DNA of 64,000 nt from Blastocatellia bacterium (GCA_035429885.1 DAOMFR010000019.1:67-64066); one strand, 5' to 3'. Positions 15,701-41,412 are shown, counted from the first letter of the stretch. Notes: a model not told the origin generated them from the sequence alone. Numbers and translations: made by a program.

Positions 15701-16337
15701 ATACCAGATGAATCGTAGCAGTTGTGCTCGGCAATCCGGATTCTTCCAGGCAAGCAAAGGTCACCTGGATTTTTGACCGAGGATCATTAGGACTGTCGTT
15801 TGGTTGTTCCGGCGGACCGTCTGATGCGAGTCCCAATCGTCTGGCCAGATCGGGAAGCTCACCAACGCGCCCAATGACCAACGCCTTGTTCCTAAGAGAT
15901 TCAAGCGGCTCGTTTTCGATATCCTCTAGCGCGCCTCTCACTTCCGGGAAAGGGGCCAACCCCGGCGGCCCGATCATTTCCAAAGATTCAACGACAATCT
16001 GCCCGTTGGTCCTGATCTTCAATTGGCAATCGAATTGAAGAACCGGCTTTGCCCCGGTTTTGCGCAGCAAACAACGGATTAGGCAATTGATCCGAATCTC
16101 TTTGCGATTGCTGCTGATTCTCACCTGTTCGCTGCCGTCTTCGTTTTGGGGCAGCACATCAAGAATCAGCAAGGGCTGACCTGACGTATTGACGTCAAAA
16201 AGCACAATGCGGTCAAACCCGACCAAGGGCGCATTTGTCGGACTTTCTTGCGCCCGCTTGTTCACAAGATTCAATTCCAGTTTGAGTTCCAAAGCTCCGG
16301 AGAGTGACTGGCGGTAAGCGCGTAGGATCGTTGGCAT
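9798..16337 (-). CDS. Giant hypothetical protein, 2179 aa, with a central ~500-aa amphipathic helical region and a C-terminal Gly/hydrophobic beta-rich module
   Basis: Uninterrupted 6.5-kb ORF with an AGGAG SD (16346-16350) upstream of the ATG at 16337. Residues ~1197-1700 are nearly free of Pro and Gly and are rich in charged residues, Gln and Ala. Residues ~1962-2140 show alternating hydrophobic strands with GGGG/GGG turns. No catalytic or secretion motif was recognised. Confidence 0.85.
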   Translation of the reverse strand: MPTILRAYRQSLSGALELKLELNLVNKRAQESPTNAPLVGFDRIVLFDVNTSGQPLLILDVLPQNEDGSEQVRISSNRKEIRINCLIRCLLRKTGAKPVLQFDCQLKIRTNGQIVVESLEMIGPPGLAPFPEVRGALEDIENEPLESLRNKALVIGRVGELPDLARRLGLASDGPPEQPNDSPNDPRSKIQVTFACLEESGLPSTTATIHLVFSRRLSLHPGVDHKVLSPSPDIRVSRCSGENEWQEDARLNICKAQTEALNLDDENLAPLTIVQRQPRNRNTTQYDQLPLGQWVVQLEGIPHTSVLQLWNNSIARPYLHALHMIQDGRPVSFMPVWMFTAGEDLLQDPPRAERENVPGGTPPEPPLAAPRWTLMAKMTDGSRDLVFDDNKFDLHSDKFRAGGIGLRVRSLYPSLSEFATKAILPGFLSQVGEPLRLTYRVVSTQFKNGKPDELLIEKESLPFSFQTEHLPGNSDEQISRVGALDLVFPERPAKQARLADLQLAADSLLRVCFRKAALGDLYSAEVLTVNIKGRLALFDLVPGGQDDLPGEEFVSADVLGSCDTVTLTAEEEFEAGLERQFRRRRPLLIPFPSHLANALLKSSAEQSALDQTRKPQFMLDFEERTEAEQSQTLSMRLLEYGSGSSQLRGQQRLISLDAQPFLVALVEAPPFVGSAQEGIREIGNWSATADEGASWELIGSSEGFNLFLPPQGLGEAMEKWKLTGKHEDVPENAPIDFRFSPLAKLNLKPSFFKQRFAEAPWNLRRILGFPGQRAPGASIVNARFELFYGLACQVTYPFLRLAELDSKLGQIPGRLSRDLKWKTSASSRQLEVYKEFRRAWAELYSRYLSRLSVLEAYDANQPANLIVTEGVNYELRNTAKLRYPISTKLVPENDPRRASSPPDGLVGGVTWGFESANIYDQLLSEPKSFDGSQLANPFFSSLGGWGNQKAVFNGGLTTIYANVAMGRTYFYSIERIGRIGAFWNLAKHVIIYERTVAPTEQFKDKQEHHLGRPLLRKVREFVELLQPVRKYPEFGAEAISRGFVTGDEFKSRVINVDSDWGSDIPNEGWQVPLWNVQASQEKPNVYPKPQILLEVAAEGEGGGVINVELQEPEKLVFFTRTVDDTQGEHGVEPKDRANTDKWPAVRNVDFPDQPVPVKPNIPAYDPASLDRPLPDAQTIEPGYEQFTFAVAPASQQINLMAERTAEALNVALRNVTMVRARLRTVEEFTEGAQRNGVIAAREGVAKLKRITEQTEEILQTILSKLPKDGNVTQAAVTELTKTIDELIAKHNSSDGLKGNFNALINQTVGDKKLSDLFRGQNVLCGVLNNATDAAIDFAQDRVIKLFADIEADLHKSIDRLSQATGNLKDNVIGAINEYGRRIEDLFTIVNTGLEELMRQAETGYQAALDFKTQAEREINAVINIADKLTTEGSARARQEIEELRRRLQALLRKLESAARSGTETKLAGLIEKVRSNIASLGQKIDVQLGEIDKKLQQGATNVKTELEAFRSNLSTAFVQLENDLKNLRTEIQAALSQAQAEVNKPRQVIKGIQAKLVAAVNQAQATPAALRQAVSDVVNQAESDFRQAIVDAKAKVREITCNVLVAKLLDEASEFGNVLNNLLGGGNVADHFLEKLKAQLTASIGKPFAELRGDIERVFDDIRFRLAPFADRVNQALGEFAGLADETLHQIGDTTLRLLRAFGDAPRVPMLDFNRLRLAYYFDELKRHVDLTPVTALFNRLGDDLKGFGLRFPVANLLDRVVPDALENFDFSNLFPDFAGLKLEKLFSGLKFPLLPKLPGIGNGENVKVTHGVDTQARRAWVKATINVPLTDKATIFSFGPVELKLAKATFTSEAMITAELGSAPRLKVQGQIKGDWELIILGTSVVTFRETTLTFNDQGKIRFDISTDKIEMAGALQFLTDLLKKFLPSSGDDLPPIRLIIIDGKPAGVETVIDLPLPPVQLGAFGISGLVMGAGFRLLLRPVSTGIEFALGVALSFGKKEDPFTLTIFILGGGGWFDTRLTYYPLNNRLLGDITIGITASASLAIALGPIKGSVSITFGIYADFHIDTGGGSAFAITLMLLLKGEVEVLSIVSVSISLLLEAQYSSDGSLVGRGTLKVRIKICWCFTFKFSKTVTYTFKKGSGSGSQAAIASSFALELAAAGDEFDLAAAEYLAMFE

Positions 16338-24165: not shown

Positions 24166-25851
24166 TTACCCGATTTTGATGCCGATGCTTTCCAGAAACT
24201 TGGTCGGTTTTTCTCCACCGATCAGCGCGAAAATGTAATCGTTCTGGAGTCTTGCTGTTTCTTCAGCGGTTTTCGGGTCGCGTTCGCGGGCGCTCATCAG
24301 AGCGACTTCAGTCGGCGTAACTTCTTTGATGGTTTGTCCGAAATACGCCGTGATTTTTCCTTCGTCAATGCAATCGTAGACCAGCATTTTGTTGCCGAGC
24401 TTTAAATCGCTTTTGAGATTGCTGCGGATAATCAGCGAGACCGTGTTGTCACGCCAACCAGTGATTTGCGTGCCGTCATCGGAACGATAGGCGGCCAGAT
24501 CCACGGCGGCTTCAATGGCGGAATTGCCTGCGCCGACAACCACGATGTGTTTGCCGCTGTAATCGTTCGGATCCGTCAGTTTGTATTTGACCTTGTCGTC
24601 TTCAAAGGCAGGGGTCTGTTTAACCTTGGGAATGTATTTCTGGCCGCAATTGTGACAGAAGCGGTTATCGCTCAATCGCTTTTCGCCGCATTTGTTACAG
24701 AACGCAGGCATGATCATTTCCGTGGCGGTGACTACAATCTTGGAATCTTCGCCGGGCACGCCCAATTTCATCGGAGTTCCGCGATTGCCGATGGCCAAAA
24801 TTACACGACGAACGCTGTACTGCATTTTGCGTTTGGTTTTGTCCTGATCGGTTTCGACGATGAAGCTGTCGCCCACAGGTTTGACGCTTTTGCAGCTCTC
24901 GTATTCGTTGATGGTCAGGCCGTTGGTGCGAATCGTTTCCATCCAGGAACCAATCATCACTTCTTTGGTGGCGCCTGCGCCGGACAAATTGATTCCGCCA
25001 TTGACGGGTTTTTCCACCGGATTGAAATACACATATTTGCCGGCTTGATAAGTTTGCTGGATGGTGCCGACGACTTGATCCTGTTCGATGGCGATGTATT
25101 TCAACCCGCGTTGTTTGGCCAGCGCTGTCGCGGACAAGCCCGCCGGGCCAATGCCAACGATGGCGACGTCGTAATCGCAATCGCCGTTTTTCCCTGCGTG
25201 CTTCAAATCTTCGACAATGCAATCAACCACTGCGCCGCCTTCGTTAATGGCATTTTTGATCAGTGGAACCCCGGACACATCTCCGATCAGGTACACGCCA
25301 GGCACGTTGGTCAGGAATTGCTGGTCGCGCTTGGGAACCTTGCGTTCGGGAATCTGTTTGGTGGTATTGATGACGATGCAGGATTTCGGCACGGTCGGGC
25401 ATTCGACCTGACAACTGGTGTCTTCGGTGCATTGTTCGATGGCAATCGGAGTGGCTTTGCCGTTGACGATGGCCAGCACGTCATGCGGGCAGGCATCCAC
25501 GCAAGCATGGCAGCCAATGCATGTCGCCGTGTTGATGACCGGGTGAGGATACGGCGGGCCGTCCGGATCAAGCGCCGCTCCGAGCGATTGCGGCACCACA
25601 ACGGTTTTGGCTTTTGTGTCCGAAGGTTGCATTTCCGCTTCGGCCATAGCTTCGATGACTCGCTTGCGTTCAAAAAACGTGTCTGTCGCGACCAACGCTA
25701 ATCCGACAACTCCCGCAAACAGAATCAATCCCAGCCAGCCCATCGGCGGCACGGCTCCGAAACTGACGGTAAAGCGCGAAACAAACGCAGCCACCAGCAC
25801 CCCTGCCAACAAAAACAATGTAATGACGAGTTGCGATCTTTTCATAGCCAA
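24166..25851 (-). CDS. Membrane-anchored ferredoxin-flavoprotein (2 TM, 4Fe-4S ferredoxin domain, FAD/NAD(P)-binding pyridine nucleotide-disulfide oxidoreductase-like, inserted zinc ribbon)
   Basis: Two N-terminal hydrophobic helices. CIGCHACVDACP plus CTEDTSCQVECP. Dinucleotide folds DVAIVGIGPAGL and HIVVVGAGNSAIE. A CNKCG...CHNCG ribbon sits between them. Confidence 0.75.
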   Translation of the reverse strand: MAMKRSQLVITLFLLAGVLVAAFVSRFTVSFGAVPPMGWLGLILFAGVVGLALVATDTFFERKRVIEAMAEAEMQPSDTKAKTVVVPQSLGAALDPDGPPYPHPVINTATCIGCHACVDACPHDVLAIVNGKATPIAIEQCTEDTSCQVECPTVPKSCIVINTTKQIPERKVPKRDQQFLTNVPGVYLIGDVSGVPLIKNAINEGGAVVDCIVEDLKHAGKNGDCDYDVAIVGIGPAGLSATALAKQRGLKYIAIEQDQVVGTIQQTYQAGKYVYFNPVEKPVNGGINLSGAGATKEVMIGSWMETIRTNGLTINEYESCKSVKPVGDSFIVETDQDKTKRKMQYSVRRVILAIGNRGTPMKLGVPGEDSKIVVTATEMIMPAFCNKCGEKRLSDNRFCHNCGQKYIPKVKQTPAFEDDKVKYKLTDPNDYSGKHIVVVGAGNSAIEAAVDLAAYRSDDGTQITGWRDNTVSLIIRSNLKSDLKLGNKMLVYDCIDEGKITAYFGQTIKEVTPTEVALMSARERDPKTAEETARLQNDYIFALIGGEKPTKFLESIGIKIG

Positions 25852-25860
25852 ACAAAATAA

Positions 25861-26763
25861 TTAGTTGAAAAACGGAAACAGGATTTTCAGCTCAGCCTTG
25901 TCCGGCCTGCGCCCGTATTCGCAGATTTCAAACGCTTCGGCGTATTGCACTTTTGCGGCGCGATCTTTGCCATACCAATCTTCCAGGTTTTTGCGGTATT
26001 TGTCGGCAACGTTTTTCTGGCGATCCACGAAGCGTTGGCGAACAACTGCCCAGCGTTCTTTCTGCTTCGCGGGGTCTGTTGTCAGCAACTCTTGGTAACC
26101 GTTCGCGCCGCCTTCATAAAACTGCGACACCATGCCGAGCAATCCATCCAGTTTCTTTTCCATCACGGAATCAACATCCACCACCACGTCGGCCTGAAAT
26201 GGATTCGGTTTTTCAAAGCGGTCGGAAAAATACATAAACACGGGATTGTTCGTCAGATGCGGAACGTCCGGCGCGTAATTCGGAACCGTGACCATGTACG
26301 CCGCGTCTTGCACCAAAACTCCGGCGTAACGGTGATCGGGATGATAATCGTTGGGACGGTGGCTAATGACGATATCGGCTTTCCATTGGCGGATCAGTTT
26401 GGTGATGGCTTTGCGATTTTCCAGCGTCGGCAGCAATTCGCCATCGTGGTTATCCAGAATTTCCACAGTCGTGCCTAGAATCTTGGCGGCGCGTTCGACT
26501 TCGACTTTGCGGCGTCGAGCCAGCGGGCCACCCGCTTCGCTAAAATGCCCAATGTCGCCATTAGTGACGGCAACCAGTTTGACAGCGTGGCCTTTGGCCG
26601 CCCACAACGCCGCCGTTCCCGAAACTCCAATTTCCGCATCATCCGGGTGTGCGCCGAAACAGATGATTCTCAGTTGACGTTGCGCGGAATTGGCGGGAAG
26701 CAGGCTGTAAGCAGTCGCCAACAGACAATAGGTGGCGAGTAATAAGCAAAGTTTGCGAATCAT
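25861..26763 (-). CDS. PIG-L/LmbE family deacetylase with a signal peptide
   Basis: AHPDDAEIG motif and TNGD..H. I prefer the ATG at 26763 (MIRKLCLLLATYCLLA, GGAG 9-12 nt upstream) over the longer ORF-track start at 26868. Confidence 0.75.
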   Translation of the reverse strand: MIRKLCLLLATYCLLATAYSLLPANSAQRQLRIICFGAHPDDAEIGVSGTAALWAAKGHAVKLVAVTNGDIGHFSEAGGPLARRRKVEVERAAKILGTTVEILDNHDGELLPTLENRKAITKLIRQWKADIVISHRPNDYHPDHRYAGVLVQDAAYMVTVPNYAPDVPHLTNNPVFMYFSDRFEKPNPFQADVVVDVDSVMEKKLDGLLGMVSQFYEGGANGYQELLTTDPAKQKERWAVVRQRFVDRQKNVADKYRKNLEDWYGKDRAAKVQYAEAFEICEYGRRPDKAELKILFPFFN

Positions 26764-26900
26764 GGTTTTTCTCCACGGAAAGTATCGGGGCCGAATCCAT
26801 TTGCCCCTGTTTTTCGAATCAATTGAGATCGGTCGTGCTTCCCACAAATCGTGGTTTACGACATTCAATCTCTCAGTCCCTGCATCCTGCTATTTCTTCA

Positions 26901-28391
26901 TCATTTTTCCATCCGCCGCAAACTGGCGCGGAGTTCTTTTTCTTCGCCGTGCTGGGCGTGGCAAGAGACGCATTTGGGGCCACCAGCTTGAGTATTAGTC
27001 ATGAATTGTCTGCCGCGATCAGCAAAGAAGGCTTTGGCACTTTCATTCTGGGCGTTGGCCGTAGCCGGATCGGTTCCGTGGCACGCCGCGCAGGATTCAC
27101 GCACGCCTTGAGTTAAGGCTGTGTCTTCAAACCCCGCCGTATGGCAATCGGTGCAATTGCTGCGACCTTGTTGCCGGCCTGCCAGATGAAGCAGATGGAA
27201 ACTGTCTTTCGTTTTGTATAGCGCCGGTGTTCCGGGAAGCTCTCTGCGCGACCATTCAGCTTGAGAAATGGAAAACACGATTTCCGACCAGCGGCCATTT
27301 ACGACAGGATAGCCAAATGAAGCTCCGCCGTGAGGGGATTTCAACTCTTTGCCAGCGAAACTATTGCCATCGCGATGGCATCCCGTGCAAGCGGTATTGG
27401 CGACCAAAGCCGGGCGAAAATCTCGTCCCAAATGTTCCGTGTGGCAAGCGGTGCAAGTCAGCCCAGCTTTCATGTGTTTGTCGGATACTTCTGAATGAAA
27501 CGCCGAAGTCGAGTGGCAGGACGCGCAGTTTTGATTGAGCGACGCTTTGACCGAATGACACGTTGTGCAAGCTGACGAAGCAGGAATTCGAGCGATTCCT
27601 GGCGAAATCGAAAAGTCCTTTCGGGCATGTGCTGCCGAGAGCGCGCCAGGGGAATAAGCATCCTTGAAGATAAAAATCGCGGCCACCGACAGAACCGTCA
27701 CGATCAGCGTTGCCCATCCAAACAACGCGCGTGGCCAGGGGCGTTGCAAATCGCGAGTTGGAACCCAATTGAACTGTGCTCTGCCCAGACGTTTTTTGAC
27801 CTTCGGTTTGAGCGGGGAATCCGTCGCCAGCTTTCCGTCTTCGCGTTTGCGCTTGTCCCAAAAGATTTTCAGCGCCTGGGCATCCACAGGCTTCAACATT
27901 CCAGTCAGCATTCCGGTGCCGGACAAACGCCGAGTGCCTTTGGGCGTGACTTTGTCGCGTTGCAACTTGGCCAGAATTCCCGGATCAATGCGCACGGTCT
28001 TGCCTTGATCCGGAGGCAACTGCATCCCGGTTCCGGTGCTTGGCGCGGACGCCTCAACGGGCAAAGGCTTGACGCTCATTTCCACGTCGATCATCAGCCC
28101 ATCGCCTACATATCGCGGGAACAAAAAGAACGGGCCAATCTGAACAACGTCGCCGTCAGCGATCGGCGTTTGATCCACCAATTCGCCATTCAGCGTCGTG
28201 CCATTGGCTTCCGACAAGTTGAAAATCCAGTAATCGCCATTGAGCTCTTTGATTCCTGCGTGAGTGCGCGACACCGACGGATGGTTCAACACCAGGTCGC
28301 TGCCCGCCAATCGGCCAATCGTCAGCCCTTCGCTTTCTACCAGCGCAGGATCAAGACTAAGGTCTTTTCGGATGATGACGAACTTGTTCAT
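26901..28391 (-). CDS. FHA domain - single TM - heptaheme c-type cytochrome fusion protein
   Basis: N-terminal FHA (LTIGRLAGSDLVLNHPSVSRTHAGI...NGTTLNGELV...GDVVQIG). TM helix ALFGWATLIVTVLSVAAIFIF is preceded by basic residues. The C-terminal half has seven CxxCH motifs (CTTCH, CASCH, CTACH, CTGCH, CTDCH, CAACH, CVSCH). Confidence 0.8.
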   Translation of the reverse strand: MNKFVIIRKDLSLDPALVESEGLTIGRLAGSDLVLNHPSVSRTHAGIKELNGDYWIFNLSEANGTTLNGELVDQTPIADGDVVQIGPFFLFPRYVGDGLMIDVEMSVKPLPVEASAPSTGTGMQLPPDQGKTVRIDPGILAKLQRDKVTPKGTRRLSGTGMLTGMLKPVDAQALKIFWDKRKREDGKLATDSPLKPKVKKRLGRAQFNWVPTRDLQRPWPRALFGWATLIVTVLSVAAIFIFKDAYSPGALSAAHARKDFSISPGIARIPASSACTTCHSVKASLNQNCASCHSTSAFHSEVSDKHMKAGLTCTACHTEHLGRDFRPALVANTACTGCHRDGNSFAGKELKSPHGGASFGYPVVNGRWSEIVFSISQAEWSRRELPGTPALYKTKDSFHLLHLAGRQQGRSNCTDCHTAGFEDTALTQGVRESCAACHGTDPATANAQNESAKAFFADRGRQFMTNTQAGGPKCVSCHAQHGEEKELRASLRRMEK

Positions 28392-28405
28392 AAGTTGGTG
28401 GTCGG

Positions 28406-30844
28406 CTACCTCGCCAGAAAATAAATCACTTGAATGATGTGGACGATCATCAATGCCAGCATCAGCGACGTGACCAGCACGTGCGGAGCCAGCCAGAGTT
28501 TCAGCAATTGATGGAGATAGATTAAGGCGTCCACTCTGCGTATGGTTGCAGCCATCTCAATGCCTTTGAGTAGTCGTTCGCGTTCGCCGTCAGTCATGCC
28601 TTGGCCAATGGCCGCGAATTCAGTTTTGATATTTGCCAGCATTTCATCCAGCGACTCTCGTCTCAAATATTGGCGCAGCAAAAAACTCAGGGAAATGGTG
28701 CGCGGAACGACTTGCTTCTGGATCGTCAGCCGGACGTTGGGAGTGACTTTGGCCATCAGTTCGCCAAGCTCGTGACTCAACTCCTCGCGGCGGGCGGTCA
28801 GGTCTTCGATCAACAGCGGCTGGCCTTCGATTCGAGTCAGCATTCGCGGAGCTATGAAGTAAATCAAAATGCCGAACAAGCCGGTTAAGATCACAAGGTC
28901 AAACGAGACCATTAACGCCGTAGTCAGCAGGCCGCCGGAATCCGAGCCTCCGTGCAGCAGCAATACGATTCCGGCGATGACGCCCAGATAGCTATGAGCC
29001 AACATCCAGTATCGCAAGGCTCCGGCGCGTTTACGGTAAATCTGCCGTCGAATAGGATAAGCCATCACTCCCGCGATGCCGATCAGCCCAATAGCGCCAG
29101 TCAACCAACGCATGTCCAGCCACGATCCGATCAACGGAGTTTCCAATCCATAACGCATCATTCCGGCCAGCGTCAGCAATGTCAGGATCAACGTGGCAAA
29201 CAAGCCAAAGGCATGCATCAATCGTTTGCCGAAATCTTTATGCGAGGTATGGCGGGCGACGACGTGCGTGGAATCGCGAAAGATCGTGCCTTCAGCTTCT
29301 TTGATTTCAGAAAAGTAAATGTGCGGATCCACTCTCAGCAACGCGCCGGTCGGACAGTTTTCTTCGCAACTGTATGCCTTGCGTTTGGTGCCCGGAGGGT
29401 TAAGCGGCGTGTTTTGGCAGAGATTGCACTTTACAGCCAGCAAATCTTCCGTTTGTTCAACGGCCGGTGGCAGCGGGGATGGTTTCAGGTCGAACCAGCC
29501 TTGGCTGGTTAAGGCCGGAGCCGGTTTTCGACTCACCATCGAAATTGCATTGTACGGGCATTGCGTCGCGCAATCGCCACAACCGATGCAGCTTTTGGGA
29601 TCAATGTCCACTTGACCACCTGGGAAGCGGCCAATTGCTCCCGTCGGGCAACCTGTCAAACATTCAGGGTCCTGACAGTGCATGCAAACCGAAGGCGAAA
29701 GCAAACTTTGGAAACTGGATTTCGGTTCTACTTTGACCGGGCGTTCAACGTGTATGCCTCTGCGCAGCAATCGCGATTGCCCATGCACCTGGTGACACGC
29801 CATGGAGCAATTGCCGCAACGCACACACATCTCCATATCCATCACCAGCAAATTTGTGCCATCAACCAGCCCGGTTTCGATCAACGATTCTTGAGCAATG
29901 GCGACCGGCAACGGTTGCCGGCCTTCGTTGGGATTGTCCGGCGCGGCCATTCCGGTAAACGCCAGCAACAGGATTTCACGCAATTCCGGATGTTTGCGCA
30001 GATCGGCCAACGAAATTTCCAGCACTTCGGCGCGCCCCATCAATGTGCAAGTCTGTTCCCAATTCCCATCGCGAGTGATCGCTTCGACGCCGAAACTATG
30101 CGACGGGCCGAAATAAGCTTCCGTGGCTTTGGCGTTCCAATTTCGCGGCTTGATTTCTTCGGGTGTCAGTTGGCGCGTGACGGTTCGCGGAGTGACTTTG
30201 GCCCAGCCGGATTTCAGCACGAACAGATTTTTCATCGGATCGCCCGCGCGAAAGAGCACGTGGTTTTTGCCAAAGACTTTGAATTGCGAGATGGCTTCAA
30301 GCTGGCTAACAGCTTCTTTGCTGAGTTGAGTTGCCGCGGCGATGTCCTGAATGGTGGTTGCGCGTCCGTTGCGACGATACGTGGAATCCAGCACTTCGCC
30401 GAATTTGGGAAGTTTGCGCAATAACCGAAGCGCAGGCCGCTGAATTTCCAACACCTGAACCGGTTTGTCTTTGGGCGCGCGAATGGTTGCTGACCGCTGG
30501 ACGCCGGCCAGCACAGACATTTCGCCGAACTGCACTCCGGCGGGAATCTCTGCCACCTTGTTTTGGCCATTGTCGAAGAGCACATCGGCGGTACCGCTGA
30601 CGACGATGAAAAATGAATTGCCTCCCCATTCGCCTTCGCGGACAATTTCTTCGCCCGGCATATAGGTCAGCAAGCGAACGTATGGGCCGACTTTCTTGCC
30701 GTTGTAATTGCGTCCATAAACAATCACTTCCAGGTCAAGTTCGTAATCGTAATGGCCGTCGTGCTGAGATGTCAGATCGGCGATGGCGCCAATGCTTTCA
30801 ATTGCAGCCAGCACGTCTTTGTGCTTAAGAGTCTCTTCAGGCAT
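28406..30844 (-). CDS. cNMP-binding (x2) / four-cluster 4Fe-4S ferredoxin / 5-TM putative di-heme b membrane protein
   Basis: First cNMP domain has an intact phosphate-binding cassette (FGEMSVLAGVQRSATIRA). The second is degenerate. Four Cys groups follow a DmsB/NrfC-like pattern (CVRCGNCSMAC, CMHCQDPECLTGCP, CIGCGDCATQCP, CNLCQ...CEENCP). The C-terminal part has five hydrophobic helices with H617-x13-H631 and H788-x13-H802. Confidence 0.75.
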   Translation of the reverse strand: MPEETLKHKDVLAAIESIGAIADLTSQHDGHYDYELDLEVIVYGRNYNGKKVGPYVRLLTYMPGEEIVREGEWGGNSFFIVVSGTADVLFDNGQNKVAEIPAGVQFGEMSVLAGVQRSATIRAPKDKPVQVLEIQRPALRLLRKLPKFGEVLDSTYRRNGRATTIQDIAAATQLSKEAVSQLEAISQFKVFGKNHVLFRAGDPMKNLFVLKSGWAKVTPRTVTRQLTPEEIKPRNWNAKATEAYFGPSHSFGVEAITRDGNWEQTCTLMGRAEVLEISLADLRKHPELREILLLAFTGMAAPDNPNEGRQPLPVAIAQESLIETGLVDGTNLLVMDMEMCVRCGNCSMACHQVHGQSRLLRRGIHVERPVKVEPKSSFQSLLSPSVCMHCQDPECLTGCPTGAIGRFPGGQVDIDPKSCIGCGDCATQCPYNAISMVSRKPAPALTSQGWFDLKPSPLPPAVEQTEDLLAVKCNLCQNTPLNPPGTKRKAYSCEENCPTGALLRVDPHIYFSEIKEAEGTIFRDSTHVVARHTSHKDFGKRLMHAFGLFATLILTLLTLAGMMRYGLETPLIGSWLDMRWLTGAIGLIGIAGVMAYPIRRQIYRKRAGALRYWMLAHSYLGVIAGIVLLLHGGSDSGGLLTTALMVSFDLVILTGLFGILIYFIAPRMLTRIEGQPLLIEDLTARREELSHELGELMAKVTPNVRLTIQKQVVPRTISLSFLLRQYLRRESLDEMLANIKTEFAAIGQGMTDGERERLLKGIEMAATIRRVDALIYLHQLLKLWLAPHVLVTSLMLALMIVHIIQVIYFLAR

Positions 30845-33858: not shown

Positions 33859-35526
33859 TTATCGCCTTCGAGGTTGTGTGACCGCCAAGCGAGCGTTGAC
33901 CGGCGGTTGAAGGCTAGGCGCAAAATTCGCTCTCAAGCTCTCCGCCTTGTCGTTAACGATCTCACGCACGATAGGCTGGTCGGCAAATTCGATTTTAACA
34001 GGTTGATAAGAAGGCGGGATGTTGCCCAAGCGATTTCGGAATGTCAAAACGGCGATTTGCCGGTTTCCGGTTTCAAAGTGATGACTGGGCGGCAACGCCA
34101 ATACTAACCCAACGAATCCGGTAGAAATCTGGCTGGCATTCACATAGCTCAGCGTATTCGGAATGCTGTCATTTGAAGAGGATAGAAATTCCCATCGTTC
34201 CGCATCGAATCGAAAACTAAACCCAACGGCGTTTTCGATCCCACTGGCTTCGCAGAAAATGCCGACTGAGTTTGGCGATAAGGCTTTGGCGTAAATCGTT
34301 GTTTGGTCGTTGGTAGTCGTTGGGCGGTGGGGGGCGATTGGCAAAAAGCCAACTCCAAACTCCTGGTTTCTAACTCCCAACTCCCAGCTCCCAAATCCCA
34401 ACTCCCAGTTTCCAACTCCCGGTTCCGAGGACTGTTCCAGGTTCATGGCGGGCGCGACGGGGCCGCCTGCGCCGGTCGGTGAATCGAGCGCGGCAGCGTA
34501 ACGCCCGGCTTGCACCCAATCGGTCAAAGTGATTCTTCCATCGCCCAACGTTGCGCGCGGAGCGCAATCTGCTCGCTGGTATTCGTTGCCAGCTGTTACC
34601 ACGTCCAATCCCGAAGCAAAGCGTCCAAGTTGAGTCCAATCGGCGATGGTAATTGTGCCGTTATTGCTTCCGTTCGGGCGTGGAGCCACGTCTGCTTCAA
34701 AGCCTCCGCTGATTGTCAGCGTCAAGGGGTTTGATGTGCCTCCGCCGGGCAGGGGATTGACTGCCGTGATTTTGAATTGTGTGGCAAAAGCCAGATCGCT
34801 GGATGTCAAAGTCGTCGTCACTTGTGTGCTGCTGACAAAATTGGTTGTTCGAGCCGAATTGTTGAACTGAACAATGACACCTTGCAAAAAATTGCTGCCG
34901 TTGACGGTGAGCGTCGGGGTTTGTGTGGTCAAGGGAATGAGGCTTGGCGACAGACTGGTCAAGGTCGGTGCGGGATTCGGGGTTACTGGCGTCGCCAGAT
35001 TGGCGGACGGAATGATTTCGGGCGCGGTTTGTCCGGGCCGAATCCACATCAAGCGAATGACTGCATTGGCCGTCAGCTCGAAGTATTCCAGTCGCAAGTT
35101 GTAGCTTTGACCACCGGTTAAAGCCACGGCAGTGCCTCGGTCTTCAGTTAGCGGATGCGGAGTGAGGTTATCAATGACCAACTGATTGCCCAGCCATAAC
35201 CGAACTCCATCGTCCGATTGCGTGACAAACACATAATTGCCTGTTGTGGGGGGCGTGAGTTGCCCTGTCCAGCGAATGGAAAAGGTTTCAGAATTGATTG
35301 CCGGATCGGGAGCTGAAAATCCAAGGTTGAAATCCACCGTCGCATCGGTGCGAGTAAGCTTCAAGTTGGTGAAATCTTCGTTGTCGAAATATTCGCCGCG
35401 AAGCCCTGCGGCAAGCGTATCGGCGACGGCTGGTTGAAACGGCTTGAGCAACGAAATGGATACCAGACAAGCCAAAATCGCGATAGGAACAAGGCGAGAT
35501 AACAGACGATACTTCTTGTCGAACAT
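33859..35526 (-). CDS. Secreted PA14 domain protein with an IPT-like domain, a dockerin-like repeat pair and a C-terminal cohesin-like domain
   Basis: Signal peptide. PA14 segment (GLRGEYFDNEDFTNLK...FSIRWTGQL). Dockerin-like duplicated segment (ADVAPRPNGSNNGTITIADW...ADCAPRATLGDGRITLTDWVQAGRY). The C-terminal beta domain resembles the C-terminus of the neighbouring 1909-aa protein. Confidence 0.75.
   Translation of the reverse strand: MFDKKYRLLSRLVPIAILACLVSISLLKPFQPAVADTLAAGLRGEYFDNEDFTNLKLTRTDATVDFNLGFSAPDPAINSETFSIRWTGQLTPPTTGNYVFVTQSDDGVRLWLGNQLVIDNLTPHPLTEDRGTAVALTGGQSYNLRLEYFELTANAVIRLMWIRPGQTAPEIIPSANLATPVTPNPAPTLTSLSPSLIPLTTQTPTLTVNGSNFLQGVIVQFNNSARTTNFVSSTQVTTTLTSSDLAFATQFKITAVNPLPGGGTSNPLTLTISGGFEADVAPRPNGSNNGTITIADWTQLGRFASGLDVVTAGNEYQRADCAPRATLGDGRITLTDWVQAGRYAAALDSPTGAGGPVAPAMNLEQSSEPGVGNWELGFGSWELGVRNQEFGVGFLPIAPHRPTTTNDQTTIYAKALSPNSVGIFCEASGIENAVGFSFRFDAERWEFLSSSNDSIPNTLSYVNASQISTGFVGLVLALPPSHHFETGNRQIAVLTFRNRLGNIPPSYQPVKIEFADQPIVREIVNDKAESLRANFAPSLQPPVNARLAVTQPRRR
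34349..34422. repeat. In-frame short tandem repeat (about 6 copies of a CCAACTCC-like unit) inside the PA14 gene
   Basis: Plus strand reads ...ccaactccaaactcc...taactcccaactcccagctcccaaatcccaactcccagtttccaactccc. It is translated on the minus strand as GVGNWELGFGSWELGVRNQEFGVG, in the linker between the dockerin-like and cohesin-like modules. Confidence 0.8.
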
Positions 35527-35682: not shown

Positions 35683-38600
35683 TTATCGAATCACATTCGC
35701 GTGTGTGCCAACGATGCTGCGAGCGATGGGGAAATCGCCGAGTTCGGCTTGAAGCGGCTGTTTATTTCGGTGGCGAGGCGCGAATTGCACAACAATGACT
35801 TCGGCTTCGCCGGGGCGCAGGCTGTGTCCGCCGGGCAAGGCCAGCATGACTCCCAAGCGGCCTTGCGCTGTTTCGTTCTGGTTGAGAATGAGTGTTGCCT
35901 GCCGAGCCTGGCGTCCGGTTCTTGCGGAAACAAAACGCCATTTGTTCGCATCAAAATTCAAACTAAAACTCAGCGCGTTTTCGGTTCCGTGAGCGTTCAG
36001 CCGGATGGAGATCGCGCCAGGAAGGGGTTTTACCGTCAACGGTTCATTTGTTTCGACGGTTTGCTGACGGCTGGCTTTCAATCCGCAATTTGCAACCCCC
36101 AATCCGCAATCGCCAGAAAGCCCTGCGACAGCAACGCTCGGTCCGCCCGCCACAGTCGCGGCTTCCAGTCCTGCAACGTAACGTCCGGTTTGCACCCAAT
36201 CAGCCAGTGTCAGGCGTCCATCGCCAAGGGTGTCGCGGGGAGCGCAGTCGGCGCGCTGAAATTCACTGCTATTGGCTGGGGAATCCAACCCGGCGACGAA
36301 TCGCCCTACTTGCACCCAGTCGGTGATTGTCACTGAGCCGTTGTTGTTTCCAAAAACACGGGGCGCAACATCGGCTTCATAACCTTGCCCAAGTCGCACA
36401 CTGCCGGAAACAAATTGTGCCGTGATTGGGGAACCGCTACCGGAAACCGCGCGAGGAATTGGCAAATCGCCAAAGTTGATTGTGGCCGTCGTGGCCGAAG
36501 CCGACGGAACAATATTGAATGTGATAACGGCGATTTGCCTTAAACCGGCCTCGTACTTCTTTCCGGAAGGTTGCGTGATCGTGAGTCCAAAAACACCTTG
36601 AGCAACACGTGTGGCGTCAGCGAAAAAATCTGCTCCAATGGAATCCACGCCGATGGAAGTTCGCGGGTCGGCAAGCAGTTTCGGATCAAAACTCAGGCTG
36701 AAATTGATGGCGGTCTCGTCGCCTTTGGAATCCAGCGTGATGGGCACGTTGACCGTTTGTCCGATAGAACCGGCGGAACTGACGACACTGATTGCGCGCG
36801 CGGCGACATTGACGGTCATGGAAGCGCTGGCTCCACCGATGTTGGCGGGTAAAGTCGCCGTAACTGTCGCAGGGCCGCCGACCGCCACACCGCTCAAGTG
36901 GAATGTCGCAGCTGCTGTTCCAGCTGGAATCACGACACTCGATGGAATCGTCAGCACAGATGTATTGGTGGACGATAGCGATACTGTCACGCTATTGGAT
37001 TGCGGGTAACTAAGCGTCACCGTTACGGGGCTTAGTGCTCCGACAGTTGCTGTCAAAGGAGACGGCGACAGCGAAATTCCCGGGAAGGACGTGAAGTTGA
37101 GTGTTTGTGCGTCCACGCAACCGGGTTTGCTCAGAATAATTGGAGCCGTGCGCGCTCCGGCAGGAACTGTGGTCGTGATGGACGTGTTGCTGTTGATCGT
37201 GAAGGAAGCAGGCACGTCGCCGAATTTGACGGCGGTCACCCCCGTGAAGCCGGAGCCTGTGATGGTGACTTGATTGCCCACGGAGCCGCTGCTTGCGCTT
37301 AGGCTGGTGACATTCAGGCAACTGGTCTGGCAGCAGGTGAACCCTGTCAGTTGCAAGGAAAACGCGCGCACGCTGCCGCTGTCTCCCGTAAAGGCGTCCA
37401 CTACAGTGAGTGTCCAGGTGCCGTTCGGGTTTTCTCCGTCGAAGGTGGACAGCGCGTTCGATGGTTTTAGAGTGCCGGTGTAAGGAGGCCCTTGCGGAGG
37501 CGGGCCGTTGGAGGCAATCGAGCCGATAGAAATTGCATTTGCTGCGTCATCATCCAGCAACATTTGGCAGAAGTTTTTGCCGCTGTTGCCGCTGCCGCCG
37601 GGGCGACTGATGATCGTCACGGTTGTTCCTGCGGGCGATGTCAGCCGAAACACCAAATCCCCAACCCAGGTGTGATCCACGCCGACGCCTGTGGCTCCGG
37701 GGCTGGACGAACACTGTGTGCCGTCAATGCGGAAGTTCAAGTCGGCGATGGTGCTGGGAAATCCGCTGACGACGATCGGTAAACTGACGCCGCGAGAATC
37801 TCCGTCGGGGATTTTTGTCGCTTCGCCCGCATAACTGAAGGTTTGCGTTGTCGTGCCGATTGCGCCGAGCGTGAAGTTGAATGTCACGATGCCCAAGTCC
37901 TGATCGCCATCTTTCAAACTCAGATTGATTGGCAAGTTTCCGCCGCAGGCTCCGCTGGCTGTGAATGTGAATTGACGCGCGACGGCTGCTGAACCGGGAG
38001 CCATTGCGCCGTAGCTTCTGGTTTGGTCGGCGGTGATGACGTTGCTGGAAGAGAGCAGTGTCGCCGTCAAATTCTGTGTGGTAGTGGAACCGTTGTTGCC
38101 CAGCAAAAGACTGACCGTTACGGTTTCGCCCGGATCAATGACTTTGTTCGCAGGCAAGCAGCTTTCGGTCACCAGCGAAGACGTGGCGCCAATAATCAGT
38201 TTGGCTGGACGCACCAGCCGCGCGCGAATGCCATAATTGCCAAACGATCCCAGTGAATCAATCAACTCGAAGGTTAAGCCGTCCAGCGAACGATAGGAAC
38301 GCGTTTTGGATTTCGTCGTGTCCAGCGCAAAAGGAAATACGTTTTCTGTCTGGGTCAGTTTTAGGCCCACGACGAAATCTCCGGACGTCACCGTGAGTGG
38401 AGAAATGTTGACCACATTGAACGCGCCGACCTGTTGCACTTGTGCCGCTGTCGTCTGAAACACGAGCCCGTCAATATTCGAATCGCCGTCAGCGTTTGAC
38501 GCGACAATCACCGAATACTGATCGCCTACGCGCACGCTGGTGTTATCCGGGAAGTAAATCGAAACGGCGTTGATCGTGGCCGGGTAAAACGCCGGAGTCA

Positions 38601-41412
38601 GCCGGTTGACGCGGTACGAAGTGCCGCCGGTTGTGACTCCTGCGGCGGTTTCAAAGCTTCCATCGTCAACAGACAGTTCAAAAGGCGCGGCGTCTTGCGT
38701 CACGGTGAAGGCTTGTCCGCCGACAGTGATGGTTCCGGTGCGTTGAATCGGTTGTGTGTTGTTGGCGACTGTGAAGTTGACGGTGCCGTTTCCCTGGCTA
38801 CCACTTGTGAATAGGACGCTGATAAATGAATCGCTGACTGTTGGTGTCCAAGCGCATTCCGAAGCCGAAGCCACCGCGAAGTTGCCTGAGCCTCCGTTGG
38901 CAGGGAAGTTTTTTGTCGCCGGAGTCAGCGTGTAAGAGCATCCGTTTCCCGCGCTTTGCGAAATGGTGACCAGTTGTCCGGCGACAGTGATTGTTCCGGT
39001 GCGCGCCAGGCCCGAAGTCGGCGCAACTGTAAAGCTGACGGTTCCGGTTCCGCTGGCGACTGCGCCGGAGTTAATGGTGATGAAGCTGGAGCCACTAATT
39101 GCTGTCCATCCGCAAGCAGCAGTTGTTTCCACGCTGATGGTTCCGACTCCGCCAGAAGCCGTGAAGCTGGAATTGTTCGCCGTCACGGTATAAGCGCAAT
39201 TGCCAACGGTCAGAATGTTGGCGCCGGTAGCCGTTTGGCCGTCAGGGTTTGTGACAGTGACGGTTTTGGTTCCGGCAGCGGCGTTGACCGTCGAAAGGTT
39301 CAACTGAATCGTTGTCGGATTGACGTAACTGACATTGTTGACGGTGACTCCGCCGCTGACGGATGCCCGCAGGCGGCAACTGTAGGAGTCTCCGGGGTCG
39401 AAAAATCCTGCTCCGTCAGCCGAGGTTAAACCAGTGAGCGTGACGTTGATCGAGCTCAAGCCTGTCGCGATCGAAGGCGGATTCGTTGCAGCAGGCGTGG
39501 CTGGCGGAGGTGCCGGAATTTTGGCTACGCGTAACCCATAGGAGTTGGCGGCGTCCGCGAATTGCTGCACGGTCCACAACGTCATGTCGTCGCAAGGGTC
39601 AACACTGGTGAACGAATAATCTCCCCAGCGGCGGCGAGCGGCCAGATTTCCGCTATCGCTGGACGGGTTGTACGGCGCAGGGCTGGCTGTGATCAACGAC
39701 GGAGCTTGCAGTGCGCCCAGCGGATCGGTTGCCAGCCGATAGGCAATCGCGGCATTCACATATTCATTCGTTCCGGCGGTGCTGCTTCCAATCAAAGCGT
39801 TTCCCTGACCGGAAACGGCCAGCGACGGAATGAAGTAATTTCGTTCGTCTTCGATGTTGGTTGTCGTGGAGGTGAATAACGTTCCGGCTTGGCGAAGCGT
39901 CGGCGCGTTAGTGGCAATGTCCGTGATTTCGTACCAGCGAACTCCATTGCGTGTGCGCGGAGCATCAATTGTGCCTTCGTTATTGACGGAAATGTTGTGC
40001 GTGGTCCAGATGCTGCCGCCGCGAAGTTGGGCCATTGCCAAACGATCATCAATCGCATCCAGCCTACCGTTCACTCCATTAATGTTGCCGCGATGGCGAA
40101 CCGTAATCGGTTGAGACGTGGTCAGCACATTCAGGTAAATGTTGGCCGACATCACCGGAACGCCACCTGGATTCGACACTCTGCGCAAAACCAATCGACC
40201 CAGACTGCCCGCATCCGTGCCAAGAAAATAACCTTCGGTGGAACTGGCGGCAGGATTGTCCACGCCCTGGGGCGTGAAGATGCCGTTTTTCAATGATGTA
40301 CCGGTCGAATCAATCAAGTTGCGAAAGGCTGAGGCAACAATCTGGCCGCCGCTCAGGATCGAAGATTTGCGAATGACCAACGCCGTCGTATTGCTGAACG
40401 CCCGATTGCAAAATTGATTCAATCCTACATACAGCGCGTTGGCGTCAATTCCCAGCGTCGGGAAGTCTGCAAAACATCCGTTGTCGCCCGCCGGAGACAC
40501 TTCGTTATGCGCGAACTGATAAAACGTCCAGCTCGTCGCCGTGTTGATCGTTGATCCGTCGCTGACCGCCAGCAGAATCCGATTGTTCGATGAAGCCGTG
40601 TTGACCAGCAGAATGAACCAACGTCCGGAGAGCCTGTCGTAGCGAACACGCGGGTCCGTTGTGATGAATCCTGCGCGAACGGAGTTGAAGAAGGAATCAA
40701 TGTCGGCATCCAGTTGTCCAACTGCGCCTGTGCTTTTGTTGAAGACTCGTATGCGGCCATTCACCGCCAGCAAAAATTGGGTCGGTCCGGCGGCTCCCAT
40801 CGAATCCGGCGGAAAGGCGCTGGTTTCCGCCAGGGTCGCTGCCGTGAAGTTGAGCGTTGGCAAAGGAGCGAAAGAGGGAAGTAGAGACGGAGAGACGGAG
40901 AGATTGGGTGACTGTTGCCCCAGGCGTTTGGTCTCTCTGCCCCATAATTCCTCAATCCCTCCGCCCCTCTGTCCCTCTGTTCCAGCAGGCGGCCATTGCG
41001 CACCCGGCAGGGCATCCGGGTTTTGCGGCAACTTGTCGCGATTGGGTTGTTCGAGCTCTTCTTCACGGTTGCGCTTGGCACGGCGTGGAGCCTTGGTCTC
41101 ACCGGAACGAAGCGATTGTTCGCGCGTCATGATCTCCGCCGTGGTTTCGGTGATGCCTGCTTCGCCAACCCACAACACGCCGGTGATTGATCCATCCGGG
41201 TTGATTTGTTGTTGTTGAGAATGAATGTGGCGAGCAGGCGGCGTTTTAATTTTGGATTTTGGCTTGGCTGATGAATTCGACCGCTCTGCACGACGTTGCG
41301 CCAGCCCGGCATTCAGCCATTGGCCCAACACCAAAGCCACTGTAACGAAAATCATCAACGATAAGAAGCGACGGAAAGATTTGAAGACGAATGCAAATCT
41401 CGAAACGGGCAT
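35683..41412 (-). CDS. Giant secreted/cell-surface protein (1909 aa): BACON-like, proprotein-convertase P-domain, IPT/TIG, cohesin-like and dockerin-like modules
   Basis: AGGAG SD and an N-terminal signal-anchor. Two Cys-bracketed beta domains (CAYTVT...CGWTA..., CSYTLTP...CAWTP...RTGTITVGGQAFTVTQ). P-domain signature (DHTWVGDLVFRLTSPAGT...NGTWTLTVVDAFTGDSG). IPT-like segments. The C-terminal module is paralogous to that of the 555-aa PA14 protein. Confidence 0.8.
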   Translation of the reverse strand: MPVSRFAFVFKSFRRFLSLMIFVTVALVLGQWLNAGLAQRRAERSNSSAKPKSKIKTPPARHIHSQQQQINPDGSITGVLWVGEAGITETTAEIMTREQSLRSGETKAPRRAKRNREEELEQPNRDKLPQNPDALPGAQWPPAGTEGQRGGGIEELWGRETKRLGQQSPNLSVSPSLLPSFAPLPTLNFTAATLAETSAFPPDSMGAAGPTQFLLAVNGRIRVFNKSTGAVGQLDADIDSFFNSVRAGFITTDPRVRYDRLSGRWFILLVNTASSNNRILLAVSDGSTINTATSWTFYQFAHNEVSPAGDNGCFADFPTLGIDANALYVGLNQFCNRAFSNTTALVIRKSSILSGGQIVASAFRNLIDSTGTSLKNGIFTPQGVDNPAASSTEGYFLGTDAGSLGRLVLRRVSNPGGVPVMSANIYLNVLTTSQPITVRHRGNINGVNGRLDAIDDRLAMAQLRGGSIWTTHNISVNNEGTIDAPRTRNGVRWYEITDIATNAPTLRQAGTLFTSTTTNIEDERNYFIPSLAVSGQGNALIGSSTAGTNEYVNAAIAYRLATDPLGALQAPSLITASPAPYNPSSDSGNLAARRRWGDYSFTSVDPCDDMTLWTVQQFADAANSYGLRVAKIPAPPPATPAATNPPSIATGLSSINVTLTGLTSADGAGFFDPGDSYSCRLRASVSGGVTVNNVSYVNPTTIQLNLSTVNAAAGTKTVTVTNPDGQTATGANILTVGNCAYTVTANNSSFTASGGVGTISVETTAACGWTAISGSSFITINSGAVASGTGTVSFTVAPTSGLARTGTITVAGQLVTISQSAGNGCSYTLTPATKNFPANGGSGNFAVASASECAWTPTVSDSFISVLFTSGSQGNGTVNFTVANNTQPIQRTGTITVGGQAFTVTQDAAPFELSVDDGSFETAAGVTTGGTSYRVNRLTPAFYPATINAVSIYFPDNTSVRVGDQYSVIVASNADGDSNIDGLVFQTTAAQVQQVGAFNVVNISPLTVTSGDFVVGLKLTQTENVFPFALDTTKSKTRSYRSLDGLTFELIDSLGSFGNYGIRARLVRPAKLIIGATSSLVTESCLPANKVIDPGETVTVSLLLGNNGSTTTQNLTATLLSSSNVITADQTRSYGAMAPGSAAVARQFTFTASGACGGNLPINLSLKDGDQDLGIVTFNFTLGAIGTTTQTFSYAGEATKIPDGDSRGVSLPIVVSGFPSTIADLNFRIDGTQCSSSPGATGVGVDHTWVGDLVFRLTSPAGTTVTIISRPGGSGNSGKNFCQMLLDDDAANAISIGSIASNGPPPQGPPYTGTLKPSNALSTFDGENPNGTWTLTVVDAFTGDSGSVRAFSLQLTGFTCCQTSCLNVTSLSASSGSVGNQVTITGSGFTGVTAVKFGDVPASFTINSNTSITTTVPAGARTAPIILSKPGCVDAQTLNFTSFPGISLSPSPLTATVGALSPVTVTLSYPQSNSVTVSLSSTNTSVLTIPSSVVIPAGTAAATFHLSGVAVGGPATVTATLPANIGGASASMTVNVAARAISVVSSAGSIGQTVNVPITLDSKGDETAINFSLSFDPKLLADPRTSIGVDSIGADFFADATRVAQGVFGLTITQPSGKKYEAGLRQIAVITFNIVPSASATTATINFGDLPIPRAVSGSGSPITAQFVSGSVRLGQGYEADVAPRVFGNNNGSVTITDWVQVGRFVAGLDSPANSSEFQRADCAPRDTLGDGRLTLADWVQTGRYVAGLEAATVAGGPSVAVAGLSGDCGLGVANCGLKASRQQTVETNEPLTVKPLPGAISIRLNAHGTENALSFSLNFDANKWRFVSARTGRQARQATLILNQNETAQGRLGVMLALPGGHSLRPGEAEVIVVQFAPRHRNKQPLQAELGDFPIARSIVGTHANVIR
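36079..36113. repeat. In-frame short repeat (two copies of CAATCCGCAAT) inside the 1909-aa gene
   Basis: caatccgcaatttgcaacccccaatccgcaatcgc is translated on the minus strand as GDCGLGVANCGL. It sits at the same linker position as the repeat in the PA14 gene. Confidence 0.75.

Follow-up and report, generated by a model that had tools for sequence, protein, structure and literature searches.

The window analysed here, a stretch of 64,000 nucleotides (nt) from a Blastocatellia bacterium (GCA_035429885.1 DAOMFR010000019.1:67-64066), carries four closely spaced genes on its minus strand, and three of them (A, B and D) encode one conserved, uncharacterised inner-membrane redox module, which is real and widespread, with members in several bacterial phyla. 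We propose that A, B and D carry electrons from NAD(P)H through flavin, iron-sulphur (Fe-S) clusters and two b hemes outward to seven c hemes, with a cyclic nucleotide (cNMP)-binding domain and an FHA domain as control inputs, and we assign this reading a probability of roughly 60%. The four genes are as follows.

28406..30844, minus strand: gene A, 812 residues; tandem cNMP-binding domains, a four-cluster [4Fe-4S] ferredoxin domain and a putative di-heme-b domain with five transmembrane (TM) helices
26901..28391, minus strand: gene B, 496 residues; a cytoplasmic FHA domain, one TM helix and a periplasmic heptaheme c domain
25861..26868, minus strand: gene C, 335 residues from a TTG start, with an alternative start, M36, at nt 26763 (25861..26763); PIG-L/LmbE-type
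24166..25851, minus strand: gene D, 561 residues; an N-terminal TM hairpin, a two-cluster ferredoxin domain and a flavoprotein for flavin adenine dinucleotide (FAD) and NAD(P)H

The gaps are 14 nt between A and B, 32 or 137 nt between B and C, depending on the start of C, and 9 nt between C and D. An initial annotation, made from the sequence alone, had described the four minus-strand genes with these coordinates and gaps, and open reading frame (ORF) calling reproduced them exactly. It had further described a cNMP/Fe-S membrane protein with a four-cluster ferredoxin, five TM helices and two H-x13-H pairs, a single-pass FHA protein with seven CxxCH sites, and a ferredoxin-flavoprotein held by a TM hairpin. 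The first was borne out by Pfam, NCBIfam and motif counts, the second by an FHA match in Pfam together with TM and motif counts, and the third by two N-terminal TM helices and matches to Fer4 and Pyr_redox_2/3; assignment with hidden Markov models recovered all of the claimed domains in A, B and D. The annotation was also right to keep the deacetylase, C, outside the redox chain, since C is present in just the two closest loci. The scan of the operon for promoters and terminators yielded fewer sites than shuffled sequence and was uninformative.

The strongest evidence for a common module comes from gene order and gene fusion. For Blastocatellia we compared 80 loci, all from this group, taken from species-representative genomes and fetched with a 10-sequence alignment; more distant clades were reached through representative proteins, contig neighbourhoods and one metagenome scan. 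Blastocatellia hold more than 100 full-length homologues of A, and at E<=1e-30 its relatives comprise 242 cluster representatives, many of them full-length at 23-35% identity. B was found directly downstream of A in 61 of the 62 Blastocatellia loci with enough sequence, and D downstream of B in 43 of 53, 34 of these having no more than 300 nt between the two genes. The three architectures thus recur together across genomes, and B- and D-type parts were found fused after A in two distant clades.

The first of these clades, in which A is about 30% identical to A of the window, includes L087 and relatives annotated as Myxococcales. There, A is followed by one protein of 1366-1430 residues that carries, in this order, three or four FHA domains, a TM helix, seven CxxCH sites, a second TM helix, Fer4 and Pyr_redox (L084, L086, L087 and P0267). 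D is 31% identical to the L084 fusion (E=7e-53), for which a word-index homologue search returned at least four full-length relatives. The second clade came from the metagenome scan and has one member annotated as Polyangiaceae; at least one of the two clades is therefore Myxococcales. Here, a D-like flavoprotein is encoded downstream of A on the same strand wherever there was room for it (57/57 loci), in 56 cases within 2.5 kilobases (kb). At L123 this flavoprotein is fused as TM helix, four CxxCH, TM helix, Fer4 and Pyr_redox, and at the other loci of the clade ORFs with four or five CxxCH overlap the D-like match. Since a single TM helix joins the periplasmic heme domain to the ferredoxin domain in the fusion proteins, the fusions place the c hemes outside and the ferredoxin-flavoprotein inside. 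Because their domains are fused in distant clades, there is strong evidence, at the level of sequence, that B and D act together, beside A. Chance adjacency of A, B and D was rejected on the synteny counts (A-B, 61/62; A-B-D, 43/53) together with the fusions elsewhere.

Some loci of the Blastocatellia type with A, B and D stand under other labels: L014, L033, L036 and L079 are labelled 'uncultured Clostridia' or 'Heliomicrobium sp.' and are probably mislabelled or contaminated bins. A of L036 is 93% identical to A of the window. L065 is labelled Actinomycetota under a scaffold name of Acidobacteria, and this is probably a mislabelled or contaminated bin as well.

Protein A combines the following domains.

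30425..30712, minus strand: cNMP-binding domain 1 (residues about 45-140; PF00027), with a canonical phosphate-binding cassette, FGEMSVLAGVQRSAT
29999..30289, minus strand: cNMP-binding domain 2 (residues about 186-282), the second PF00027 stretch, degenerate, its cassette without the canonical R-x-A
29330..29848, minus strand: ferredoxin domain (residues 333-505) of the DmsB/NrfC/DsrO type, with 16 Cys in four cluster motifs
28409..29233, minus strand: 5-TM domain (residues 538-812), with H617-x13-H631 in TM3 and H788-x13-H802 in TM5

The cNMP_binding family of Pfam matched A in two stretches with 79.6 bits. Domain 1 keeps the F-G-E...R-x-A-T pattern of the cassette, and within the A family the cassette is conserved at E108 (31 of 38 members) and R117 (34 of 37). 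The AlphaFold2 model of full-length A had a predicted local distance difference test score (pLDDT) of 89.3 and a predicted template modelling score of 0.87, and a Foldseek search with it returned only tandem CNB folds of the PKA-R type (E about 5e-12). Conservation along A was read from an alignment of 41 homologues with 23-51% identity, drawn from a search of all cluster representatives. The cluster ligands C340/343/346/350, C387/390/395/399, C419/422/425/429 and C473/476/493/497 make up the four Cys motifs that mark the ferredoxin subunits of the DmsB/NrfC/DsrO type, and each of the 16 is conserved in at least 90% of the 41 sequences; against the DsrO, ArrB, NrfC and DmsB models the domain scored 52-64 bits, far under the equivalog cut-offs of 200-450. 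A has no signal peptide, its cNMP and Fe-S domains lie upstream of TM1 and the loop after TM2 is strongly basic. By this predicted topology the ferredoxin domain is cytoplasmic, as A carries no Tat signal.

In the same alignment, G583, H617, H631, G655, H788 and H802 were the only invariant columns, so that the four TM histidines are among just six such positions, and they hold down to 23% identity. The initial annotation had named two computational outcomes that would count against it, separate occurrence of the three genes and variable TM histidines; both were looked at, and its reading is supported on either count. The AlphaFold2 model of the TM domain alone had a pLDDT of 86, and a helical cytoplasmic insert of about 110 residues separates TM4 from TM5. 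TM3 and TM5 are predicted to run in the same direction, since A lacks a signal peptide, has its N-terminal domains in the cytoplasm and carries a strongly basic loop behind TM2; one heme could accordingly be bound by H617/H788 and another by H631/H802. In cytochrome b and NOX, too, the two His of such a pair are about 21 Å apart along the helix, and at this H-x13-H spacing the two hemes of A would lie that far apart, in the geometry of these proteins. Ferric reductases (NOX/FRE) are recognised by bis-His pairs on TM3 and TM5, 12-13 residues apart, and A has this arrangement. Weak Pfam matches of the TM domain were seen in 21 family members: DUF4405 in 8/21 (best E=3e-4), the prokaryotic cytochrome b561 (Ni_hydr_CYTB) in 5/21 and Ferric_reduct in 2/21 (best E=0.0056). 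DUF4405 proteins bind heme b through four central His (PMC11334425). The NarI/HdrE/DsrM family PF02665 had no match at E<=1 in any of the 21 members, and its His stand on TM2 and TM5 with unequal spacing, in contrast to TM3 and TM5, both x13, in A. On these grounds the TM domain is very likely a very divergent di-heme cytochrome b, and probably kin to the MsrQ/DUF4405/ferric-reductase assemblage, of which it is not an established member.

Protein B spans the membrane once.

28134..28322, minus strand: FHA domain (residues 24-86; PF00498, 57.4 bits against a cut-off of 20.7)
27669..27725, minus strand: the single TM helix (residues 223-241)
26958..27569, minus strand: seven CxxCH sites (residues 275-474), at C275, C289, C313, C335, C413, C434 and C474

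The FHA residues that are typical for phosphothreonine binding, G26, R27, S41, R42, N68 and G69, were conserved in at least 90% of 61 sequences; the reading of H44 in the S-x-x-H motif comes from the window protein only. Ahead of the TM helix stands a basic juxtamembrane motif that is also conserved, FWDKRKR ... NWVPTRDL. Seven CxxCH sites were counted in 54 of 60 homologues and eight in the other six, all seven sites of B being at least 90% conserved, and seven further conserved His (255, 306, 320, 354, 399, 402 and 481) are candidate distal ligands.

Protein D has four recognisable parts.

25687..25836, minus strand: TM hairpin (residues 6-55), with basic residues at both flanks
25372..25545, minus strand: ferredoxin domain (residues 103-160; Fer4)
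24169..25176, minus strand: flavoprotein (residues 226-561), with the FAD motif GIGPAG, the NAD(P)H motif GAGNSA and R476
24637..24702, minus strand: Zn-ribbon, CxxC...CxxC (residues 384-405)

The basic flanks at both ends of the hairpin indicate that the ferredoxin and flavoprotein parts of D face the cytoplasm. Its cluster motifs are C111-x2-C114-x2-C117-x3-C121-P and C141-x2-D144-x2-C147-x3-C151-P; the second site reads CxxDxxCxxxCP, with Asp for Cys, in D of Blastocatellia and has the canonical form CxxCxxCxxxCP in the fusion proteins. The seven ferredoxin Cys, both GxGxxG/A dinucleotide motifs and R476 were invariant in the D alignment, and the Pfam scores were 99 bits for Pyr_redox_3 and 83.6 bits for Pyr_redox_2. 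The Zn-ribbon lies inside an insertion of about 50 residues (372-420) that is present in all aligned D proteins of Blastocatellia and absent from the fusions of the two distant clades. D has neither the YpdA Cys in its FAD motif nor the CxxC of thioredoxin reductases and, because of this and of its invariant ferredoxin Cys and dinucleotide motifs, it reads as an NAD(P)H:ferredoxin-type oxidoreductase with its own ferredoxin attached, not as a disulfide reductase.

Taken as a chain, D, held by its hairpin at the cytoplasmic face, would oxidise NAD(P)H at FAD, and its two Fe-S clusters would hand the electrons on to A with its four [4Fe-4S] clusters. They would cross the membrane over two b hemes, bound by H617/H788 on the cytoplasmic side and by H631/H802 on the periplasmic side of the parallel TM3 and TM5, and would then reach the seven c hemes of B in the periplasm. 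From there they could go to periplasmic or extracellular acceptors and, in other lineages, to further multiheme cytochromes and a putative porin. The cytoplasmic cNMP domain of A and FHA domain of B probably tune assembly or electron flow to cyclic nucleotide and to Ser/Thr phosphorylation. Outward flow is favoured because of the redox span and the membrane potential. Heme b binding, NAD(P)H as the donor, the direction of flow, quinone independence and gating are what we infer from these features, and the case for gating comes from the conserved ligand-binding residues of cNMP domain 1 and of the FHA domain. A more far-reaching form of the proposal, which we put forward tentatively and with odds well below even, is that the module would transfer electrons from NAD(P)H to periplasmic cytochrome c independently of quinone, as an oxidoreductase that parallels NADPH oxidase in bacteria and comprises flavin, six Fe-S clusters, two b and seven c hemes, and in which the flux would be switched post-translationally by cyclic nucleotide at A and by FHA-read Ser/Thr phosphorylation at B.

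Several observations weigh against an outward path from NAD(P)H. Foldseek with the TM-domain model of A found nothing significant in the PDB (best E=0.048, unrelated helical bundles; cytochrome b561 4o6y, E=0.76), and a sequence-profile search of the PDB with the TM alignment gave nothing below E=0.9. The TM domain of the window's own A had no significant match in Pfam, DUF4405 and PF01794 included, and hhalign of the TM profile against E. coli MsrQ (probability 0.4%) and YodB indicated no relation, single-sequence templates making this a weak test. The second cNMP domain, read directly from the sequence, is without the canonical phosphate-binding Arg. D does not adjoin A-B in 10/53 Blastocatellia loci and in L169, and the flavoprotein is therefore not obligatory or is encoded elsewhere. 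Besides B, the 64-kb window contains no other ORF with two or more CxxCH. Blastocatellia are mostly aerobic heterotrophs. Furthermore, the occupancy of A, B and D by their cofactors is something we infer, and a quinone site in A is possible.

Such a site is central to the first alternative, which we consider rather unlikely. The di-heme TM domain of A would be a quinol/quinone oxidoreductase site as in CbcL, NarI, HdrE and QmoC, A-B would shuttle electrons between the quinone pool and periplasmic cytochromes, and the cytoplasmic Fe-S part with D would branch off to the side, acting as NAD(P)H:quinone or as quinol:ferredoxin oxidoreductase, perhaps with confurcation. Fusions of Fe-S with di-heme b (QmoC) and of di-heme b with multiheme c (CbcL) are well-established quinone-interacting architectures, the loci in which D is missing from beside A-B suggest that A-B may work without the flavoprotein, and a quinone link has been proposed for a cluster of Ferrigenium straubiae (bioRxiv 10.64898/2026.01.22.701106). 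However, the TM domain had no Nitrate_red_gam match in Pfam and its b561 matches were weak; with four His and two Gly as its sole invariants, no conserved polar signature of a quinone site is apparent; and in two clades the heme-c and flavoprotein parts are tightly fused, which speaks for a path running straight through from NAD(P)H.

Another explanation reverses the chain, so that B would be fed by Fe(II), reduced cytochromes or similar donors from the periplasm or from outside the cell and would pass the electrons to A and on to D, which would reduce NAD(P)+ or another cytoplasmic acceptor. The cofactor chain is reversible in principle, the Ferrigenium cluster, related by description, is constitutively expressed in this Fe(II)-oxidiser (bioRxiv 10.64898/2026.01.22.701106), and the ptd cluster described below occurs in organisms that are not known as metal reducers (bioRxiv 10.1101/2023.11.21.568154). 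Yet electrons moving inward would work against a membrane potential positive outside, and the reduction of NAD(P)+ from donors at the level of Fe(II) would be strongly uphill, while, by established bioenergetics, A, B and D show no sign of machinery for a coupling ion or a Q cycle. We thus regard uptake as improbable, and outward flow from NAD(P)H as the preferred reading.

The last alternative concerns gene C, whose product matched PF02585 with 94 bits and, read from M36, has a signal-peptide-like N-terminus, MIRKLCLLLATYCLLATAYSLLPANSAQ. C stood between B and D only in L036 and L074, the closest relatives of the window locus among the 80 loci, and because of this it is a lineage-specific insertion outside the conserved module; it has the appearance of a deacetylase for export whose gene has been inserted into a redox operon. 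C and D might instead form a low-molecular-weight-thiol pair unrelated to A and B, a BshB1-type deacetylase with a YpdA/Bdr-type bacillithiol disulfide reductase, given that the top NCBIfam matches were BshB1 for C and YpdA for D and that the nearest PDB relatives of D were the YpdA/Bdr entries 7a76 and 7a7b. This is highly improbable and largely refuted by distribution (C in 2/80 loci, D following B without C elsewhere), by scores far under the curated cut-offs (C, 120.7 against 182.5 bits for TIGR04001; D, 124.9 against 339.9 bits for TIGR04018), by the signal peptide of C from M36, bacillithiol synthesis being cytoplasmic, by the membrane anchor and ferredoxin domain of D and the lack of Cys in its first GxGxxG (GIGPAG), and by the fusion of D-type domains to heme-c domains in two clades.

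The view of the initial annotation that no characterised module has this composition still holds, with apparent split versions, judged by description, in two preprints, the function being unknown in both. The first is the ptdABCDEFG operon of the marine Alphaproteobacteria UBA11136, which encodes an FAD/NAD(P) oxidoreductase, a tetraheme cytochrome, a protein with cNMP and 4Fe-4S domains and a TM protein that is ferric-reductase-like, besides a porin and cytochromes with five and ten hemes (bioRxiv 10.1101/2023.11.21.568154). As far as the preprint describes them, the same four parts are found in A, B and D: the periplasmic tetraheme PtdD resembles the heme domain of B, PtdE (cNMP-binding, 4Fe-4S) the N-terminal half of A, and the ferric-reductase-like TM protein PtdF the TM domain of A, and the pairing of flavoprotein and heme c seen in D and B is conserved or fused across three clades. 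A split A of the PtdE/PtdF type occurs in L083, as a cNMP+Fer4 protein of 502 residues and a TM-only protein of 298 residues. In the window, by contrast, a single polypeptide unites the PtdE and PtdF parts, the cytochrome is a heptaheme with an FHA domain on the cytoplasmic side, and TM hairpin, ferredoxin domain and Zn-ribbon all belong to the flavoprotein itself; genes for a porin, a pentaheme or a decaheme are absent from the 64 kb. A does have porin-like and multiheme neighbours in L084, L086 and L087, which are loci of the Myxococcales type, and in L170.

The second likeness is the Ferrigenium straubiae cluster, with a single-pass FHA-nonaheme cytochrome c, an adjacent 5-TM protein without recognised domains and a cytosolic [4Fe-4S] protein; its authors describe the combination of FHA and multiheme as previously unreported (bioRxiv 10.64898/2026.01.22.701106). 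Going by the description, the single-pass cytochrome c with a cytoplasmic FHA domain, the 5-TM part and the [4Fe-4S] part are common to both systems. The differences are nine hemes there against seven in B, separate genes for the Fe-S and TM parts, and no report of a cNMP domain or a flavoprotein. To those authors the TM protein showed no redox motif, whereas the invariant four-His pattern of the A family suggests a di-heme b. By description, the module is also present in marine Alpha- and Gammaproteobacteria, Nitrospirales, Planctomycetes and Gallionellaceae. The window system is a variant that is compact and fused, bears FHA and has no outer-membrane parts; the module is not wholly unprecedented.

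Among well-established systems, NOX/FRE and MsrQ/DUF4405 proteins share the general plan, in which cytoplasmic NAD(P)H and flavin feed two stacked b hemes, with His pairs on parallel TM3 and TM5 (spacing 12-13), and these an acceptor outside. Eukaryotic NOX enzymes are controlled by phosphorylation and second messengers. A differs from NOX/FRE by five TM helices instead of six and by the insert of about 110 residues before TM5; its flavoprotein partner is thioredoxin-reductase-like and separate, in contrast to the fused FNR-type domain; the window system interposes six Fe-S clusters and places seven c hemes outside; and A had no significant fold or sequence match to solved members of NOX/FRE or MsrQ. 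The Tmc, Hmc, Qmo and DsrMKJOP complexes and Geobacter CbcL are likewise known to link the two membrane sides with a periplasmic multiheme c, a membrane di-heme b and cytoplasmic Fe-S or flavo-Fe-S proteins, and QmoC and CbcL are comparable fusions. These systems, however, use NarI/HdrE-like or FdnI-like cytochromes b, CCG-domain Fe-S proteins and menaquinone exchange, whereas the Fe-S part in the window is a cytoplasmic DmsB/NrfC-type four-cluster domain, the TM domain belongs to another family, and the module includes signalling domains and a flavoprotein for NAD(P)H as integral components.

To our knowledge, the known electron routes to periplasmic multiheme cytochromes (CymA, ImcH, CbcL and the Tmc/Hmc complexes) start at the quinone pool. 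If the outward reading is true, a direct connection of NAD(P)H with periplasmic hemes would let electrons enter extracellular or periplasmic transfer at a different point, and aerobic soil Acidobacteria and Myxococcota would have a regulated valve exporting cytoplasmic reducing power. Sensors placed on the redox proteins themselves would make this a first testable case of direct control of such electron flow by second messengers or kinases. For both preprints a missing piece is supplied: the 'domain-less' 5-TM protein has four invariant His and is very likely a di-heme cytochrome b, and the gene fusions show that the flavoprotein is part of the same machine.

Multiheme cytochromes adjoin genes of the A family in every lineage inspected. 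The neighbours in the first distant clade include c7-like hepta- and octahemes and a 15-heme MtrC-like protein, and L170 has two cytochromes of about 590 residues near A. Four porin-like proteins were found as well.

L084 18115-19782, L086 3721-5310, L087 15666-17225 and L170 4396-5871: porin-like proteins of 490-555 residues, between multiheme cytochrome genes

Signal peptides and many alternating-hydrophobic stretches mark these proteins, with a Gly content of about 12% and, in 2/4, a C-terminal Phe; none of the four had a Pfam or NCBIfam match. They may supply the porin component of a porin-cytochrome conduit. Of the ten Pyrinomonadaceae loci without an adjacent D, most have a convergent cluster of CxxCH genes downstream of B on the opposite strand (L030, L035, L040, L042, L047, L051, L057, L058 and L075). 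The cluster of L040, the only one scanned with Pfam, encodes three c7/c3-type multiheme cytochromes of 190, 325 and 361 residues, an unknown protein of 282 residues and an HbpS-like protein of 709 residues.

Signalling genes also recur near genes of the A family, with a Ser/Thr kinase gene in the P0267 locus, a gene for a separate cNMP-binding protein in L087, and genes for a histidine kinase and a response regulator. Upstream of A in the second distant clade lies a protein of about 1000 residues with one TM helix and five CxxCH (L123 6987-9986, L119 6852-9965, L134 6906-9950), whose cytoplasmic N-terminal part weakly matched the protein-kinase C-lobe (E=0.0016-0.15). Possibly a pseudokinase fused to a cytochrome, it may take the place that FHA has in other clades. 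Among those window proteins that were scanned there was neither a Ser/Thr kinase nor a nucleotide cyclase. At 47049-48200 on the plus strand, some 16 kb away from the operon, the window encodes a response regulator fused to a PP2C/SpoIIE Ser/Thr phosphatase, and beside it, at 48316-52170 on the plus strand, a histidine kinase of 1284 residues with Reg_prop, Y_Y_Y and GAF.

Elsewhere in the window, two adjacent giant ORFs on the minus strand (4119-9761 and 9798-16337; 1880 and 2179 residues) matched no significant Pfam family and showed only a sub-threshold apolipoprotein-like helical stretch. Two neighbouring secreted proteins of 555 and 1909 residues (33859-35526 and 35683-41412, both minus strand) share a C-terminal segment that is near-identical by eye, G(F/Y)EADVAPR...ITDW(T/V)Q(L/V)GRF..GLD...(Y/F)QRADCAPR..LGDGR(I/L)TL(T/A)DWVQ(A/T)GRY. 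On the plus strand, genes for a GlcD-like FAD_binding_4 protein (42660-44015) and a GlcF-like protein with Fer4 and CCG (45485-46882) enclose a Na+/H+ exchanger gene (44056-45240).

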